The notes beneath the pieces are model-generated. The model had not been told where the DNA came from and made no database searches. It saw only the letters and a program-made list of their open reading frames with translations. The position numbers were made by a program, and so were the translations under genes. Source: a virus (Duplodnaviria > Heunggongvirae > Uroviricota > Caudoviricetes). From it: 22,875 nucleotides of DNA. Where the stretch lies: the IMG/VR virus record IMGVR_UViG_2651869748_000003, positions 1-22,875 of that record; one strand, written 5' to 3'. Of this stretch, positions 6,400-22,875 are shown piece after piece (position 1 is the stretch's first letter; each line of letters begins with the position of its first letter).

Positions 6400-6589
6400 A
6401 CTGCAGGCGCTGCGTCAGGCGCGCCTTGATTTATTAACCGGTAAACGGGTGGTGTCTGTCCAGAAAGATGGTCGCAGAATTGAATATACGGCGGCTTCTC
6501 TGGATGAGCTTAACCGGGCGATCAATGATGCGGAGTCGGTACTGGGGACAACCCGGCGTCGCCGTCGTCCGCTGGGAGTGAGGTTATGA
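6383..6589 (+). CDS. W: Head-tail joining / head completion protein (lambda gpW homolog), 68 aa
   Basis: LTGKRVVSVQKDGRRIEYTAASL matches lambda W as recalled; same length; overlaps flanking genes as in lambda. Confidence 0.9.
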   Translation: MVTVAELQALRQARLDLLTGKRVVSVQKDGRRIEYTAASLDELNRAINDAESVLGTTRRRRRPLGVRL

Positions 6590-8178
6590 AACGAACGCCT
6601 GTCCTGATTGATGTGAACGGCGTTCCGCTTCGTGAGAGTCTCAGCTACAACGGGGGCGGTGCAGGATTTGGCGGGCAAATGGCGGAGTGGTTGCCACCGG
6701 CGCAGAGTGCCGATGCAGCCCTGCTGCCTGCGTTGCGTCTGGGGAATGCCCGGGCAGATGATCTGGTGCGCAATAACGGAATAGCGGCCAATGCGGTGGC
6801 ACTGCATAAGGATCACATTGTCGGGCATATGTTTCTTATCAGCTACCGTCCGAACTGGCGCTGGCTGGGGATGCGGGAGACCGCAGCAAAAAGCTTTGTC
6901 GATGAGGTGGAGGCGGCCTGGTCGGAATACGCCGAAGGGATGTCTGGCGAGATCGACGTGGAAGGAAAACGCACGTTCACGGAATTTATCCGTGAAGGTG
7001 TGGGCGTTCATGCGTTTAACGGCGAAATCTTTGTGCAGCCGGTCTGGGATACGGAAACCACGCAGTTATTCCGTACGCGTTTTAAAGCCGTGAGTCCGAA
7101 ACGGGTGGACACGCCAGGACACGGTATGGGGAACCGTTTTCTGCGGGCCGGTGTGGAGGTCGATCGATATGGTCGTGCCGTTGCGTACCATATCTGTGAG
7201 GATGATTTTCCGTTCTCCGGGAGTGGACGATGGGAACGGATCCCGCGTGAACTTCCCACCGGGCGTCCGGCCATGCTGCATATTTTCGAGCCGGTGGAGG
7301 ACGGGCAGACCCGTGGGGCCAATCAGTTTTACAGCGTAATGGAACGGCTGAAGATGCTCGATTCCCTGCAGGCAACACAGCTTCAGTCGGCCATAGTGAA
7401 GGCGATGTATGCAGCGACGATTGAAAGTGACCTTGATACCGAAAAGGCCTTTGAATATATCGCCGGTGCGCCGCAGGGGCAGAAGGATAATCCGCTTATT
7501 AATATTCTGGATAAGTTCTCCACCTGGTATGACACGAATAACGTGACGCTGGGTGGTGTCAAAATTCCGCACCTTTTCCCCGGGGATGATCTGAAACTAC
7601 AGACTGCGCAGGATTCAGACAATGGATTTTCGGCGCTTGAACAGGCGCTGCTGCGGTATATCGCCGCCGGTCTTGGCGTTTCCTACGAACAGTTGTCCCG
7701 TGATTACTCGAAGGTCAGTTATTCAAGTGCCAGGGCCTCTGCCAATGAGTCGTGGCGCTATTTTATGGGGCGGCGAAAATTTATTGCGGCCCGGCTGGCC
7801 ACGCAGATGTTTTCCTGCTGGCTGGAAGAGGCACTTCTTCGGGGGATTATCCGTCCGCCACGGGCGCGTTTTGATTTTTATCAGGCGCGATCAGCCTGGT
7901 CACGGGCAGAGTGGATTGGTGCCGGAAGAATGGCCATTGACGGGCTCAAGGAGGTTCAGGAATCGGTGATGCGCATTGAGGCCGGACTGAGCACGTATGA
8001 GAAAGAGCTGGCGCTGATGGGCGAGGATTATCAGGACATTTTCCGCCAGCAGGTCAGGGAATCTGCAGAGCGGGAAAAAGCCGGACTCTCACGTCCGGTG
8101 TGGATAGCGCAGGCGTATCAGCAGCAGATAGCGGAGAGTCGCAGGCCGGAAGAGGAGACAACACCCCGTGAGACGTAA
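6586..8178 (+). CDS. B: Portal protein (lambda gpB homolog)
   Basis: Extensive collinear similarity to lambda gpB as recalled (GNARADDLVRNNG, FEPVEDGQTRGAN.FYSVME, LQSAIVKAMYAATIES, GSGRMAIDGLKEVQE). Confidence 0.95.
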   Translation: MKRTPVLIDVNGVPLRESLSYNGGGAGFGGQMAEWLPPAQSADAALLPALRLGNARADDLVRNNGIAANAVALHKDHIVGHMFLISYRPNWRWLGMRETAAKSFVDEVEAAWSEYAEGMSGEIDVEGKRTFTEFIREGVGVHAFNGEIFVQPVWDTETTQLFRTRFKAVSPKRVDTPGHGMGNRFLRAGVEVDRYGRAVAYHICEDDFPFSGSGRWERIPRELPTGRPAMLHIFEPVEDGQTRGANQFYSVMERLKMLDSLQATQLQSAIVKAMYAATIESDLDTEKAFEYIAGAPQGQKDNPLINILDKFSTWYDTNNVTLGGVKIPHLFPGDDLKLQTAQDSDNGFSALEQALLRYIAAGLGVSYEQLSRDYSKVSYSSARASANESWRYFMGRRKFIAARLATQMFSCWLEEALLRGIIRPPRARFDFYQARSAWSRAEWIGAGRMAIDGLKEVQESVMRIEAGLSTYEKELALMGEDYQDIFRQQVRESAEREKAGLSRPVWIAQAYQQQIAESRRPEEETTPRET

Positions 8179-9673
8179 TCTTTCACACATTATTGCCGCA
8201 GCATTCAATGAACCGCTGCTTCTGGAGCCCGCCTATGCGCGGGTTTTCTTTTGCGCGCTCGGGCGCGAGATGGGGGCAGCAAGTCTTTCGGTACCACAAC
8301 AGCAGGTACAGCTTGATGCTCCCGGAATGCTGGCTGAAACGGACGAGTACATGGCCGGAGGTAAACGACCGGCCCGTGTTTACCGGGTGGTGAACGGTAT
8401 TGCTGTACTGCCGGTGACAGGCACGCTGGTGCACCGGCTGGGGGGGATGCGGCCATTTTCCGGAATGACAGGCTATGACGGCATTGTCGCCTGTCTTCAG
8501 CAGGCAATGGCGGATAGCCAGGTGCGGGGCGTACTGCTGGACATTGACAGTCCGGGCGGGCAGGCCGCCGGCGCGTTTGACTGCGCTGACATGATTTACC
8601 GCCTCCGTCAGCAGAAGCCGGTCTGGGCACTGTGCAATGACACGGCCTGTTCTGCAGCCATGCTGCTGGCGTCGGCCTGCTCCCGACGGCTGGTTACCCA
8701 GACATCCCGTATCGGCTCCATTGGCGTGATGATGAGCCATGTCAGCTATGCCGGTCATCTGGCGCAGGCCGGTGTGGATATCACGCTGATTTACTCAGGG
8801 GCGCACAAGGTGGATGGCAATCAGTTTGAAGCCTTACCGGCAGAGGTTCGCCAGGACATGCAGCAGCGCATTGATGCGGCGCGCCGGATGTTTGCCGAAA
8901 AAGTGGCCATGTTTACCGGTCTGTCTGTTGATGCCGTCACGGGAACAGAGGCCGCCGTTTTTGAAGGTCAGTCCGGCATTGATGCCGGGCTGGCGGATGA
9001 ATTAGTCAATGCGTCGGATGCCATCAGCGTGATGGCCACGGCGCTGAACAGTAATGTCAGAGGAGGCACTATGCCGCAATTAACTGCAACGGAAGCCGCC
9101 GCGCAGGAGAACCAGCGAGTGATGGGGATCCTGACATGCCAGGAAGCGAAAGGACGTGAACAGCTTGCCACGATGCTGGCAGGACAACAGGGCATGAGCG
9201 TTGAACAGGCCCGGGCGATTCTGGCCGCGGCGGCACCGCAGCAGCCGGTGGCATCCACGCAGAGTGAAGCCGATCGCATTATGGCGTGTGAAGAAGCGAA
9301 CGGTCGTGAACAACTGGCGGCAACGCTGGCGGCGATGCCGGAGATGACGGTGGAAAAAGCCCGCCCGATCCTGGCTGCTTCACCGCAGGCGGATGCCGGA
9401 CCCTCACTCCGTGATCAGATCATGGCACTGGATGAGGCAAAAGGGGCTGAGGCGCAGGCTGAACAACTGGCTGCCTGCCCGGGAATGACTGTGGAGAGCG
9501 CCCGGGCTGTGCTGGCTGCGGGATCAGGTAAGGCAGAACCGGTCTCTGCATCCACAACCGCCCTGTTTGAACGCATCATGGCGAACCATTCACCGGCAGC
9601 GGTACAGGGTGGCGTGCCACAGACGTCAGCAGACGGTGATGCGGACGTGAAAATGCTCATGGCCATGCCATGA
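8168..9673 (+). CDS. C: Prohead protease / scaffold fusion (lambda gpC homolog, S49/ClpP-family serine peptidase domain plus C-terminal scaffold region), 501 aa
   Basis: GTG start overlapping the portal stop by 11 nt. N-terminal peptidase domain similar to lambda C as recalled (NGIAVLPV.GTLV, GMTGY.GI, GAFDCAD, SRRLVTQT..GSIGVMM). C-terminal region carries three tandem approx. 41-aa repeats. Confidence 0.9.
   Translation: MRRNLSHIIAAAFNEPLLLEPAYARVFFCALGREMGAASLSVPQQQVQLDAPGMLAETDEYMAGGKRPARVYRVVNGIAVLPVTGTLVHRLGGMRPFSGMTGYDGIVACLQQAMADSQVRGVLLDIDSPGGQAAGAFDCADMIYRLRQQKPVWALCNDTACSAAMLLASACSRRLVTQTSRIGSIGVMMSHVSYAGHLAQAGVDITLIYSGAHKVDGNQFEALPAEVRQDMQQRIDAARRMFAEKVAMFTGLSVDAVTGTEAAVFEGQSGIDAGLADELVNASDAISVMATALNSNVRGGTMPQLTATEAAAQENQRVMGILTCQEAKGREQLATMLAGQQGMSVEQARAILAAAAPQQPVASTQSEADRIMACEEANGREQLAATLAAMPEMTVEKARPILAASPQADAGPSLRDQIMALDEAKGAEAQAEQLAACPGMTVESARAVLAAGSGKAEPVSASTTALFERIMANHSPAAVQGGVPQTSADGDADVKMLMAMP
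8858..9673 (+). CDS. nu3: Candidate nested in-frame scaffolding protein (lambda Nu3 equivalent); start uncertain (ATG 8858 or ATG 9071)
   Basis: In lambda, Nu3 starts at an internal in-frame Met of C. ATG 8858 is the nearest positional equivalent (weak GAGG, 10 nt upstream). ATG 9071 has a strong AGGAGG at 9061-9066 and would give a 200-aa product. Confidence 0.4.
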   Translation: MQQRIDAARRMFAEKVAMFTGLSVDAVTGTEAAVFEGQSGIDAGLADELVNASDAISVMATALNSNVRGGTMPQLTATEAAAQENQRVMGILTCQEAKGREQLATMLAGQQGMSVEQARAILAAAAPQQPVASTQSEADRIMACEEANGREQLAATLAAMPEMTVEKARPILAASPQADAGPSLRDQIMALDEAKGAEAQAEQLAACPGMTVESARAVLAAGSGKAEPVSASTTALFERIMANHSPAAVQGGVPQTSADGDADVKMLMAMP

Positions 9674-9709: not shown

Positions 9710-10057
9710 ATGGTAACGAAAACCATCACTGAACAGCGTGCGGAAGTACGTATTTTTGCCGGTAATGATCCGGCTCATACCGCCACAGGCAGCAGCGGGA
9801 TTTCCTCGGCAACACCGGCACTGACGCCCCTGATGCTGGATGAAGCCAGCGGGAAACTGGTGGTCTGGGACGGACAGAAAGCCGGTAGTGCAGTTGGCAT
9901 ACTGGTACTGCCGCTTGAAGGCACAGAGACGGTACTGACCTATTACAAGTCGGGGACCTTTGCGACGGAGGCAATCCGCTGGCCTGAAAGTGTGGATGAA
10001 CACAAAAAGGCAAATGCCTTTGCCGGCAGTGCCCTGAGTCACGCGGCGCTGCCGTAA
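9710..10057 (+). CDS. D: Head decoration protein (lambda gpD homolog)
   Basis: NDPAHTATG...TPLMLD...KLV.WDG...AVGIL...TL..YKSGTF matches lambda D as recalled; AGGAGG 18 nt upstream. Confidence 0.95.
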   Translation: MVTKTITEQRAEVRIFAGNDPAHTATGSSGISSATPALTPLMLDEASGKLVVWDGQKAGSAVGILVLPLEGTETVLTYYKSGTFATEAIRWPESVDEHKKANAFAGSALSHAALP

Positions 10058-10114: not shown

Positions 10115-11143
10115 ATGGGATTGTTTACGACCCGCCAGTTACTCGGTTATACCGAACAAAAAGTGAAATTTCGTGCGCTGTTTCTGGAGCTGTTTTTCCG
10201 CCGTACGGTGAATTTCCATACCGAAGAGGTGATGCTGGACAAAATTACCGGAAAAACGCCGGTGGCGGCCTATGTCTCCCCGGTTGTTGAAGGAAAAGTG
10301 CTGCGTCATCGTGGTGGTGAAACCCGCGTGTTACGTCCGGGCTACGTCAAGCCGAAACACGAATTTAATTACCAGCAGGCGGTTGAGCGTCTTCCCGGTG
10401 AAGATCCGGCTCAGCTGAACGACCCGGCCTACCGTCGTCTGCGTATCATCACTGATAACCTCAAACAGGAAGAGCACGCCATTGTCCAGGTGGAAGAAAT
10501 GCAGGCGGTGAATGCCGTGCTGTATGGCAAATACACGATGGAAGGAGACCAGTTCGAGAAAATTGAGGTCGATTTTGGCAGGTCGACGAAGAATAACATC
10601 ACTCAGGGTAGTGGTAAGGAGTGGTCAAAACAGGATCGTGACACGTTCGATCCTACACATGATCTTGACCTCTACTGCGACCAGGCCAGCGGTCTTGTGA
10701 ATATTGCCATTATGGACGGTACCGTCTGGCGTCTGCTGAATGGCTTTAAATTGTTCCGCGAAAAACTGGATACCCGTCGCGGCTCTAATTCGCAACTCGA
10801 AACAGCGGTGAAAGACCTGGGCGCGGTGGTGTCCTTCAAAGGGTATTACGGCGATCTGGCCATTGTGGTGGCAAAAACGTCTTATGTGGCAGAGGACGGT
10901 ACCGAAAAACGTTATCTGCCTGAGGGCTCGCTGGTCCTGGGGAATACGGCAGCAGAGGGCATTCGTTGCTATGGTGCCATTCAGGATGCGCAGGCGTTGT
11001 CCGAAGGTGTGGTGGCCTCTTCCCGTTATCCGAAACACTGGCTGACGGTAGGGGATCCCGCCCGTGAATTTACCATGACGCAGTCCGCGCCGCTGATGGT
11101 GTTGCCGGACCCGGATGAGTTTGTGGTGGTACAGGTGAAATAA
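10115..11143 (+). CDS. E: Major capsid protein (lambda gpE homolog)
   Basis: Collinear similarity to lambda E as recalled (PGYVKPKHE, DPAYRRLRII, YTM.G..F, NITQ..G.EWSK.D..T.DPT, DPAREFTM.QSAPLM). Confidence 0.95.
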   Translation: MGLFTTRQLLGYTEQKVKFRALFLELFFRRTVNFHTEEVMLDKITGKTPVAAYVSPVVEGKVLRHRGGETRVLRPGYVKPKHEFNYQQAVERLPGEDPAQLNDPAYRRLRIITDNLKQEEHAIVQVEEMQAVNAVLYGKYTMEGDQFEKIEVDFGRSTKNNITQGSGKEWSKQDRDTFDPTHDLDLYCDQASGLVNIAIMDGTVWRLLNGFKLFREKLDTRRGSNSQLETAVKDLGAVVSFKGYYGDLAIVVAKTSYVAEDGTEKRYLPEGSLVLGNTAAEGIRCYGAIQDAQALSEGVVASSRYPKHWLTVGDPAREFTMTQSAPLMVLPDPDEFVVVQVK

Positions 11144-19432: not shown

Positions 19433-22400
19433 ATGGGCAAAGGAAGCAGTAAGGGGCATACCCCGCGCGAAGCGAAGGACAACCTGAAGTCCACGCAACT
19501 GCTGAGTGTGATTGATGCCATCAGCGAAGGGCCGATTGACGGTCCGGTGGATGGATTAAAAAGCGTGCTGCTGAACAGTACGCCGGTGCTGGACAGTGAG
19601 GGGAATACCAATATCTCCGGTGTCACGGTGGTGTTCCGGGCTGGTGAGCAGGAGCAGACTCCGCCGGAGGGATTTGAATCCTCCGGCTCCGAGACGGTGC
19701 TGGGTACGGAAGTGAAATACGACACGCCGATCACCCGCACCATCACGTCGGCAAACATCGATCGTCTGCGTTTTACCTTCGGTGTGCAGGCACTGGTGGA
19801 AACCACCTCAAAGGGGGACAGGAATCCGTCGGAAGTCCGCCTGCTGGTTCAGATACAACGTAACGGTGGCTGGGTGACGGAAAAAGACATCACCATTAAA
19901 GGCAAAACCACCTCACAGTATCTGGCATCGGTGGTGGTGGGTAACCTGCCGCCGCGCCCGTTCAATATCCGGATGCGCAGGATGACGCCGGACAGCACCA
20001 CAGACCAGCTGCAGAACAAAACGCTCTGGTCGTCATACACCGAAATCATCGATGTGAAACAGTGCTACCCGAACACGGCACTGGTCGGCGTACAGGTGGA
20101 TTCGGAGCAGTTCGGCAGCCAGCAGGTGAGCCGTAATTATCATCTTCGCGGGCGCATTCTGCAGGTGCCGTCGAACTATAACCCGCAGACGCGACAATAC
20201 AGCGGTATCTGGGACGGAACGTTAAAACCGGCATACAGCAACAACATGGCCTGGTGTCTGTGGGATATGCTTACCCATCCGCGCTACGGCATGGGGAAAC
20301 GTCTTGGTGCGGCGGATGTGGATAAATGGGCGCTGTATGTCATCGGCCAGTACTGCGACCAGGCAGTGCCGGACGGCTTTGGCGGCACGGAGCCGCGCAT
20401 CACCTGTAATGCGTACCTGACCACACAGCGCAAGGCGTGGGATGTGCTCAGTGATTTCTGCTCGGCGATGCGCTGTATGCCGGTATGGAACGGGCAGACG
20501 CTGACGTTCGTGCAGGACCGACCGTCGGATAAGGTGTGGACCTATAACCGCAGTAATGTGGTGATGCCGGATGATGGCGCGCCGTTCCGCTACAGCTTTA
20601 GCGCCCTGAAAGACCGCCATAATGCCGTTGAGGTGAACTGGATTGACCCGAACAACGGCTGGGAGACGGCGACAGAGCTTGTGGAGGATACGCAGGCCAT
20701 TGCCCGTTACGGTCGTAACGTCACGAAGATGGATGCTTTTGGCTGTACCAGCCGGGGGCAGGCACACCGCGCCGGGCTGTGGCTGATTAAAACAGAACTG
20801 CTGGAAACGCAGACCGTGGACTTCTGCGTGGGCGCAGAAGGGCTTCGCCATGTGCCGGGCGATGTCATTGAAATCTGTGATGATGACTATGCCGGTATCA
20901 GCACCGGTGGTCGTGTGCTGGCGGTGAACAGCCAGACCCGGACGCTGACGCTCGACCGTGAAATCACGCTGCCATCCTCCGGTACCACGCTGATAAGCCT
21001 GGTTGACGGAAGTGGCAATCCGGTCAGCGTGGAGGTTCAGTCCGTCACCGACGGCGTGAAGGTAAAAGTGAGCCGTGTTCCTGACGGTGTTGCTGAATAC
21101 AGCGTATGGGGGCTGAAGCTGCCGACGTTGCGCCAGCGCCTGTTCCGCTGCGTGAGTGTCCGTGAGAACGACGACGGCACGTACGCTGTCACAGCCGTGC
21201 AGCATGTCCCGGAAAAAGAGGCCATCGTGGATAACGGGGCGCACTTTGACGGCGACCAGAGCGGCACGGTGAATGGTGTCACGCCGCCAGCGGTGCAGCA
21301 CCTGACTGCCGAAGTCACCGCAGACAGCGGGGAGTATCAGGTGCTGGCGCGATGGGACACACCGAAGGTGGTGAAGGGCGTGAGCTTCCTGCTCCGTCTG
21401 ACCGTAACAGCGGACGACGGCAGTGAGCGGCTGGTCAGCACGGCCCGGACGACGGAAACCACATACCGCTTCACGCAACTGGCGCTGGGGCGTTACACGC
21501 TGACAGTCCGGGCGGTAAATGCGTGGGGGCAGCAGGGCGATCCGGCATCGGTATCGTTCCGGATTGCGGCACCGGCAGCGCCTGTCACTATTGAACTGAT
21601 ACCAGGGTATTTTCAGATAACAGCGGTCCCGAAACTGGCTGTATATGACCCGACGGTGCAGTTTGAGTTCTGGTTCTCGGAAAAGCGGATTATCGATATC
21701 AGGCAGGTTGAAACCAGCGCGCGTTATCTTGGTACGGCGCTGTACTGGATAGCCGCCAGTAGCAATATTAAGCCGGGTTATGATTATTACTTTTATATCC
21801 GCAGCGTGAACACCGTAGGTAAATCGGCATTTGTGGAGGCCGTCGGTCGGGCGAGCGATGATGCGGAAGGTTATCTGAATTTTTATAAAGGGTTGATCAA
21901 TAAAACGCATCTCGGCAAGGAACTGCTGGAAAACTTTGAGCTGACGGAGGATAACGCCAGCAAACTGGAGGAGTTTTCGAAAGAGTGGAAGGACGCTAAC
22001 GATAAATGGAATGCCATGTGGGGCGTCAAAATTGAGCAGACCAAAGACGGCAAACATTATGTCGCGGGTATTGGCCTCAGCATGGAGGACGCGGAGGAAG
22101 GCAAGCTGAGTCAGTTTCTGGTTGCCGCTAACCGTATCGCATTTATTGACCCGGCAAACGGGAATGAAACGCCGATGTTTGTGGCGCAGGGCAATCAGAT
22201 ATTCATGAACGACGTGTTCCTGAAGCGCCTGACGGCCCCCACCATTACCAGTGGTGGCAATCCACCGGCATTTTCCCTGACATCAGACGGAAAGCTGACC
22301 GCTAAAAATGCGGATATCAGTGGCAGTGTGAATGCGAACGCCGGGACGCTCAACAATGTCACGGTAAATGAAAACTGTACGATTAAGGGCATGCTGGAGG

Positions 22401-22846
22401 CGACTCAGGTCAGAGGTGACTTCGTTAAAGCTGTATCCAAATCATTCCCGAAACAGGCTGGTACGTGGGGTAACACGGAAACACCAAACGGGACGGTTAC
22501 AGTCACCATCAGCGATGATCATAACTTTGACCGTCAAATCATTATTCCGCCCATTATCTTTAACGGAATAGCGTATAGCGATCCGGGAAGTGGTAATAAC
22601 CCGGGAGGTACAAGATACACGGGGTATGGTTTTGAAGTTCGCAAAAACGGTGTATTAATCGCATCCAGAGAAACTAAAGGGGCCATTCCCGGTAGCTACA
22701 GTGCGGTTATTGATATGCCGAGTGGCAGGGGAAGCGTCACTCTGGAGTTTAAGGTTTTCCATAAAGGCAATCAGTGGGCAGGTAATATCACCGACTGTAC
22801 GGTGATTGTGACCAAAAAAGCCGCTTCCGGCATCAGTATTCGTTGA
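19433..22846 (+). CDS. J: Tail tip / central tail fiber host-specificity protein J homolog, 1137 aa, with diverged C-terminal domain
   Basis: About 1000 N-terminal residues collinear with lambda J as recalled; the last approx. 150 aa differ and the DNA becomes more AT-rich. Confidence 0.95.
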
Positions 22847-22875
22847 AATTGTTATAACCCATATAAGGGCACCAG

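Follow-up and report, generated by a model that had tools for sequence, protein, structure and literature searches.

Three tandem modules in the scaffold part of a lambda C/Nu3 homologue of phage 21 type

Described relatives of the gene

In phage lambda, gpC and gpNu3 follow an architecture in which an S49 protease carries a scaffold tail, with a putative nested in-frame start, and it is this architecture that returns, at the same position in the head operon, in the gene described here. The sizes differ: lambda C (J02459) has 439 aa and a predicted nested product of 131 aa, compared to 501 and 200 aa for the present gene. J02459 itself annotates lambda nu3 from an earlier methionine, which leads to a product of 201 aa, and the annotators of N15 chose the downstream site. 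Medina et al. reportedly found in 2011 that purified gpNu3 is part helical and part disordered, with cooperative unfolding and weak dimerisation, and that it drives the assembly of gpE, a behaviour that would fit one small folded module accompanied by disordered segments.

Phage 21 is closer still. Its head genes were reportedly dealt with by Smith and Feiss in Gene in 1993, and the head operon record M81255.1 is one that we take to stem from that work. The present gene and phage 21 gene 5/6 (M81255.1, OL657228.1) share 98.5% of their nucleotides over 1506 nt, and its protein differs from that of gene 5 by nine amino acids in 501, all of them point substitutions, of which one falls in the second of the three modules discussed below (A373V in R2) and four in the C-terminal tail. 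Within gene 6, M81255.1 lists three repeat_region features, the 'Tri1 box', the 'Tri box' and the 'Tri3 box' (locus coordinates 2471-2574, 2611-2721 and 2752-2865), each with the remark 'function unknown; putative'. When 6667 is added to these coordinates to obtain those of the window (i.e. the whole stretch of viral DNA analysed, 22,875 nt), the boxes coincide with modules R1-R3; that is, three tandem boxes of ~ 35-38 codons at fixed positions in the scaffold frame are present in the window as well. The triple repeat is therefore already known, its annotation in phage 21 dating back about thirty years, to the 1990s. As a discovery it carries little weight, since it has been annotated for so long and occurs in about one in three complete E. 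coli genomes. What is added here is a tally of copy number (1, 3 and 4), a dating of the triplication by positional orthology, the conservation of the internal start, the prediction of a three-helix bundle and the observation that a curated domain model is missing.

Two further members of the family are relevant. The lambda gpC homologue STM2605 of the Salmonella prophage Gifsy-1 (498 aa) is 65% identical overall to the window protein (86% for the capsid protein) and contains three modules in the same order, orthologous by position; its annotation cites the Swiss-Prot entry 'Head-tail preconnector protein GP5 [Contains: Scaffold protein GP6]'. The Gifsy-1 lineage is a diverged one from Salmonella, and in related Salmonella proteins the tail extends differently. 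The prophage protein WP_096934546.1 of E. coli strain STEC309 belongs to the same family and has the same module as well as the internal Shine-Dalgarno sequence and ATG, but with its 538 aa it contains four modules, in a strict 46-aa period and with copies that are 72-80% identical in nucleotides.

Outside the family, tandem three-helix-bundle binding modules are known from surface proteins of bacteria (the Staphylococcus protein A domains and the GA modules), which are among the systems nearest to the present one. A passage in a study of P22 describes the C-terminal helix-turn-helix domain of the scaffold protein gp8 as essential for coat binding (10.1101/2022.12.13.520362). This domain resembles the module discussed here in being small and helical and in lying near the C-terminus of a scaffold, but P22 has only one such unit, and no protease is joined to its scaffold. 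Searches of PDB sequences and with Foldseek gave no sequence or fold match between the module and the P22-type coat-binding domain, and the likeness is one of functional analogy rather than homology.

The protease-scaffold gene and its putative nested start

The window carries a late operon of lambdoid type, from a phage or prophage, with genes for lysis, terminase, portal, head, tail and J, and outside the protease/scaffold gene it is a mosaic that is ~ 90% identical to PhiR12-type phages. The gene for the 501-aa protease/scaffold fusion, the counterpart of lambda C and of gene 5 in phage 21 (8168..9673, plus strand), is adjoined upstream by the portal gene (6586-8178) and followed downstream by the decoration gene (9710-10057) and then the major capsid gene (10115-11143), which is the B-C-D-E order of lambda. 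The head gene products in the window are 50-61% identical to their lambda counterparts. The major capsid protein (342 aa, versus 341 aa in lambda) is 61% identical, and a length of 341-342 aa holds for all three capsid genes compared, i.e. those of lambda, the window and Gifsy-1.

Among the PHROG profiles, phrog_53 ('head maturation protease') matches the 501-aa ORF from end to end (E 3e-228). The Peptidase S49 domain (SppA/ClpP-fold; Pfam PF01343) spans aa146-293 (8603..9046, plus strand) with an E-value of 7.2e-35 and a score of 120.7 bits (cutoff 24.9), and the NCBIfam model SppA_dom also matches (E 4e-31), albeit under its own cutoff. Over its first 300 aa the window protein, a putative protease, shares 59% identity with the N-terminal 306 aa of lambda C, and in the pairwise alignment the motifs at the aligned serine (CSA) and lysine (HKVDGN) are conserved between the two. 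The S49 domain, the phrog_53 match and the location between the portal and the decoration and capsid genes together identify the ORF, by sequence and position, as a homologue of lambda C with the nested scaffold gene Nu3, and judging from its near-identity to phage 21 it is a phage 21-type allele of this head-assembly gene.

The putative start of the nested gene can be read from the sequence as well. A strong, putative internal Shine-Dalgarno sequence (AGAGGAGG; 9059..9066, plus strand) lies 4 nt ahead of an in-frame ATG at 9071, the codon for M302. From this codon a nested scaffold gene, homologous to phage 21 gene 6 and lambda Nu3 (9071..9673, plus strand), is predicted to produce a 200-aa protein that would be identical to the C-terminus of the 501-aa protein and would contain all three modules. 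Phage 21 has the same internal ribosome binding site and ATG, and both M81255.1 and OL657228.1 annotate a putative ribosome binding site of gene 6 at the equivalent site, together with the gene 6 CDS. A Shine-Dalgarno sequence and ATG at the equivalent position were found in all seven genes that were checked, including those of lambda, N15, phi80, Gifsy-1 and STEC309; in the relatives checked, GGAGG or AGGAG lies 3-6 nt ahead of an in-frame ATG directly past the protease domain. The corresponding residue is M309 in lambda, M311 in both N15 and phi80, M302 in Gifsy-1 and M303 in STEC309. The predicted nested products follow the number of modules, with 131 aa (lambda) and 137 aa (N15 and phi80) for one module, 197-200 aa for three (Gifsy-1, phage 21 and the window) and 236 aa for four (STEC309).

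The modules, their copy number and their age

The sequence-only reading had placed three tandem repeats of ~ 41 aa at 9107-9529 in the scaffold part, and they are indeed present at exactly these coordinates; the translation of 9107-9529 on the plus strand yields the very peptide that was quoted. All three are encoded on the plus strand: R1 covers aa314-358 (9107..9241) and is the counterpart of the phage 21 'Tri1 box' (mapped to 9138-9241 of the window), R2 covers aa367-407 (9266..9388) and corresponds to the middle 'Tri box' (9278-9388), and R3 covers aa414-454 (9407..9529) and corresponds to the 'Tri3 box' (9419-9532). Pairwise local BLOSUM62 scores between R1, R2 and R3 range from 83 to 101, compared to 23-25 (± 4.5-4.9) for shuffled sequences (z = 12-18). 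None of the 2000 composition-preserving shuffles reached the observed score, which means that the alanine-rich composition is not the source of the similarity. In addition, there are three independent PHROG profiles for proteins of scaffolds or of capsid assembly (8399, 8940 and 17040), and every one of them hits the repeat region in three separate places.

When aligned by codon, the modules share 46-61% of their amino acids and 52-67% of their nucleotides, with an identity at the third position of just 32-41%. Tandem Repeats Finder detected no repeat in the DNA, and the repeat is seen at the protein level only. Such a low third-position identity combined with conservation of the amino acids indicates that R1-R3 are kept alike by selection on the protein and not on the DNA. 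The residues EAKGRE...LA..PGMTVEQA...LAAAP are retained in every copy and lineage.

Lambda C had been described in the earlier reading as 62 aa shorter, with one full and one partial copy, and J02459 bears this out: lambda C contains a single complete module (aa357-400, ENSRIMGILNCEEAHGREEQARVLAETPGMTVKTARRILAAAPQ), after which comes TALDRLMQG, and there is a weak partial one. In lambda the module is preceded by a Ser/Thr/Ala-rich linker of ~ 40 aa that is absent from the window protein, so that the net gain of 62 aa is accounted for by two extra modules minus this linker. R1 is the closest of the three to the single module of lambda and, by sequence, is clearly orthologous to it.

For aa302-501, AlphaFold2 returned three separate units, each consisting of a long helix, a short helical turn and two more helices. 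The block pLDDT was 75-81 for the units (77-81 for R1), whereas linkers and tail were of low confidence and the pTM was 0.26. Such a pTM, together with the low-confidence linkers, means that no fixed arrangement between the units is predicted. The structure predictions are based on shallow alignments of 25-30 sequences (25 for aa302-501) and the model confidence is moderate. Each module is thus predicted to be a small three-helix bundle, joined to the next by a flexible linker.

PDB sequence searches returned no chain related to the module. A Foldseek query with the complete 200-aa model gave nothing meaningful either, because the units in that model have an arbitrary relative orientation. Taken over the PDB sequence, profile and Foldseek searches, no solved structure was found that is related to the module by sequence or fold. 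Neither does a curated family in Pfam or NCBIfam span the module; a domain model for it would label genes such as this one as protease-scaffold fusions, instead of plain 'S49 family peptidase'. The comparison of the module with the last helix-turn-helix of the S49 domain gave an hhalign probability of 77% (P 2e-5), and the module may have arisen by duplication of that element.

Among complete E. coli genomes the triple form is widespread: the 603-nt scaffold region is found, at a coverage of at least 80%, in 1,864 of 5,426 genomes (2,922 places), including that of O157:H7 EDL933. The four-module form (538 aa) occurs in 104 of the same 5,426. To capture the diversity of the family, the whole protein was searched against 1.84 billion cluster representatives at 50% identity, in which modules were counted with an iterated module HMM. 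This gave 127 representatives of at least 380 aa, of which 95 have one module, 31 have none that is detectable and a single one has three (P0093; 505 aa, 61% identical). As for the named phages, lambda, phi80 and N15 have one module and Gifsy-1 has three. Had lambda and most relatives carried three copies, this would have been the ordinary state, but one copy is what 95 of the 127 relatives have. Three copies are therefore a lineage-specific condition and not the norm of the family, and at the same time the rule within a single lineage that is very common.

A protein search with the 200-aa scaffold part mostly returned fragments at contig edges, and it was used for finding variants and not for the tally. 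Two-module forms with in-frame deletions are also seen among database fragments, and P0011, one of these, represents 53 member sequences. The protein search with the module profile yielded short fragments only, without any match outside S49 proteins.

The copies were described in the sequence-only reading as about half identical in nucleotides and the duplication as old, which agrees both with the identities given above (52-67%) and with the observation that copies at the same position are closer across proteins than copies within one protein. R1 is 80% identical to the R1 of P0093, P0029 and P0027, and R2 shares 81% identity with its Gifsy-1 counterpart R2, versus 60% with its best neighbour in its own protein, which is also the best match between any modules of the window protein. 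The best match of R3 elsewhere is the R3 of the Salmonella homologue P0029 (66%). Since units at the same position are more alike across proteins than within them, the triplication must predate the split between the phage 21-type and Gifsy-type head modules. As far as these comparisons go, the three copies are an old tandem triplication in the lineage of phage 21 and Gifsy-1. The four copies of STEC309, in turn, are most like each other (up to 92% in protein), which suggests later expansion or homogenisation and points to copies that are either younger or homogenised.

Possible role of the modules and the C-terminal tail

From one reading frame, two products would be made, i.e. a 501-aa S49 protease with a scaffold tail and a 200-aa scaffold. 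The scaffold would consist of an independently folding module of ~ 41 residues, present three times as beads on flexible linkers, and then a tail of ~ 47 residues. The module is the only well-conserved and confidently folded element of the nested product, and for this reason it is taken to be the contact unit of the scaffold. Its partner during procapsid assembly would be the major capsid protein, bound on the inner face, and/or another scaffold or portal subunit. The module would, in addition, bring the attached protease into the shell, where the scaffold would then be destroyed by the protease. With three modules the scaffold would be trivalent, compared to a monovalent one in lambda, and the modules would replace the long disordered linker of lambda. 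Candidate partners are known from lambda, where a two-hybrid map shows interactions of Nu3 with E, with Nu3 itself and with C, and cites that of Nu3 with B from earlier work (PMC3224144).

It seems fairly probable that the module is a protein-contact unit whose copy number sets the valency of the scaffold, with the partner and the effect of extra copies being what we infer on top of the conservation and the predicted fold. The earlier suggestion that the number of copies could reflect altered capsid contacts is plausible, although the capsid protein, which has the size of its lambda counterpart and is 61% identical to it, gives no sign of such a difference. A more specific version, in which the module is an uncatalogued three-helix-bundle domain for capsid binding or scaffold pairing and the copy number (1, 3 or 4, plus the deletion forms) sets valency, is tentative, and we would not bet on it. 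If this version is true, nature provides an allelic series on valency and linker length in the assembly of the same T=7 shell. In any case, a natural series of 1, 3 and 4 copies, with nested scaffolds of 131 to 236 aa at a constant capsid size, is convenient for questions on the valency and length of scaffolds.

A different explanation is that the modules mainly act as a spacer, setting the length or mass of the scaffold inside the procapsid and standing in for the lambda linker, in which case copy number would be near-neutral. Forms with one, three and four modules as well as in-frame deletion forms are all natural, and the linker from the end of the protease to the module is indeed longer in one-copy relatives (median 64 aa) than in three-copy proteins (29 aa), with the Ser/Thr/Ala-rich linker of ~ 40 aa in lambda being absent from the window protein. 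However, the total C-terminal length varies, being ~ 150 aa in one-copy relatives versus ~ 210 aa in the window protein, as does the length of the nested products. Moreover, the same residues are kept in all copies and lineages in spite of the low identity at third positions. We therefore regard a mere spacer as unlikely, and return to the protein-contact module as the preferred reading.

Far less credible is a role of the Tri boxes at the level of DNA or RNA, for instance as regulator binding sites or translational signals. It is true that M81255.1 lists the boxes as repeat_region features of the DNA and that OL657228.1 marks two matches to the CII-site pattern in gene 6, but the CII pattern occurs three times in the window versus 4.3 times expected by chance, and the divergence of the copies in nucleotides, especially at third positions, as well as the blank result of Tandem Repeats Finder, argue against it, so that a DNA-level role was rejected. 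Minus-strand ORFs do run across the region, but they match no phage protein family, and overlapping minus-strand genes were likewise rejected. That the module is a nucleic-acid-binding unit of the helix-hairpin-helix type, which would organise or exclude DNA in the procapsid, is just as improbable, because the weak Pfam match at aa427-450 (E 0.093) reaches 13.1 bits against a cutoff of 24 at one site only, for which PF00633 membership was rejected, and the profile matches to the C-terminal HhH repeats of NusA are also weak (E about 1.2).

The module is followed, after its third copy, by the C-terminal tail (aa455-501; 9530..9670, plus strand), which includes a weak candidate for a partial fourth copy (9557-9589) and a conserved end (...DADVKMLMAMP). 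In the AlphaFold model the tail is of low confidence, with one helix at aa461-473. The partial fourth copy that had been proposed, TTALFERIMANH (aa463-474), does rank fourth in a scan of the whole protein with a helix-A PSSM, but 5% of shuffled tails score equally, by which it is not significant (p about 0.05) and only suggestive. The length of the tail after the last module is similar throughout, with a median of 53 aa in one-copy relatives and 48-50 aa in three-copy proteins.

Longer and shorter forms of the module array

The protease/scaffold gene occurs elsewhere as an allele with four modules instead of three, located at 628-2244 of L010 (a locus of E. coli STEC309; WP_096934546.1) and also at 1-1043 of L009. 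The encoded protein is 538 aa long and its four modules follow a strict period of 46 aa, while the module copies within the allele share 72-80% identity at the DNA level. The allele was found in 104 of the 5,426 complete E. coli genomes, and together these features argue, on sequence grounds, for a further, more recent expansion of the array in another prophage lineage.

Shortened forms exist as well: in five protein relatives of the product of 8168-9673 (P0011, which represents 53 member sequences, P0016, P0020, P0021 and P0092), in-frame deletions have either reduced the array to two modules or merged adjacent modules, and in P0092 (382 aa) the end of the protease domain is joined to the end of the second module, R2. 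Such variants may reflect decaying prophages, repeat-to-repeat recombination or assembly errors.

As for its origin, in a profile-profile comparison the module matched the C-terminal helix-turn-helix of the S49 domain (window 8882-8947, aa239-260, RRMFAEKVAMFTGLSVDAVTGT) over 22 columns, with a probability of 77% and a P of 2e-5. The module may derive from this segment, or the resemblance may simply be that of generic helix-turn-helices.

Predicted internal start and annotated CII sites

Directly after the S49 domain, a strong internal Shine-Dalgarno sequence and an in-frame ATG (window 9059-9073) are kept in all seven C-type genes examined, including those at L004, L005, L006 and L010 and that of lambda (L003 1702-1714; AGGAGGG-cga-ATG, C residue M309). 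Starting from M309, lambda Nu3 is predicted to be 131 aa long, whereas the classic J02459 record places the start at M239 (201 aa); the N15 annotation has the scaffold start at the downstream site (137 aa).

According to the annotation of the phage 21 genome in OL657228.1, the scaffold gene contains two 'CII binding sites' (window 9076-9089 and 9310-9323, minus strand). These appear to be unsupported matches to the pattern TTGYN6TTGY, since it is not enriched in the window (3 occurrences versus 4.3 expected by chance).

Make-up of the window

The best phage matches, those of the PhiR12 type (~90% identity), cover only ~599-21884, leaving both ends (1-598 and about 21900-22875) outside, while the 98.5% figure for phage 21-like identity comes from the protease/scaffold gene (8168-9673) only. 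From these alignments, the window looks like a mosaic lambdoid element, with ends unlike the sequenced phages among the matches listed.
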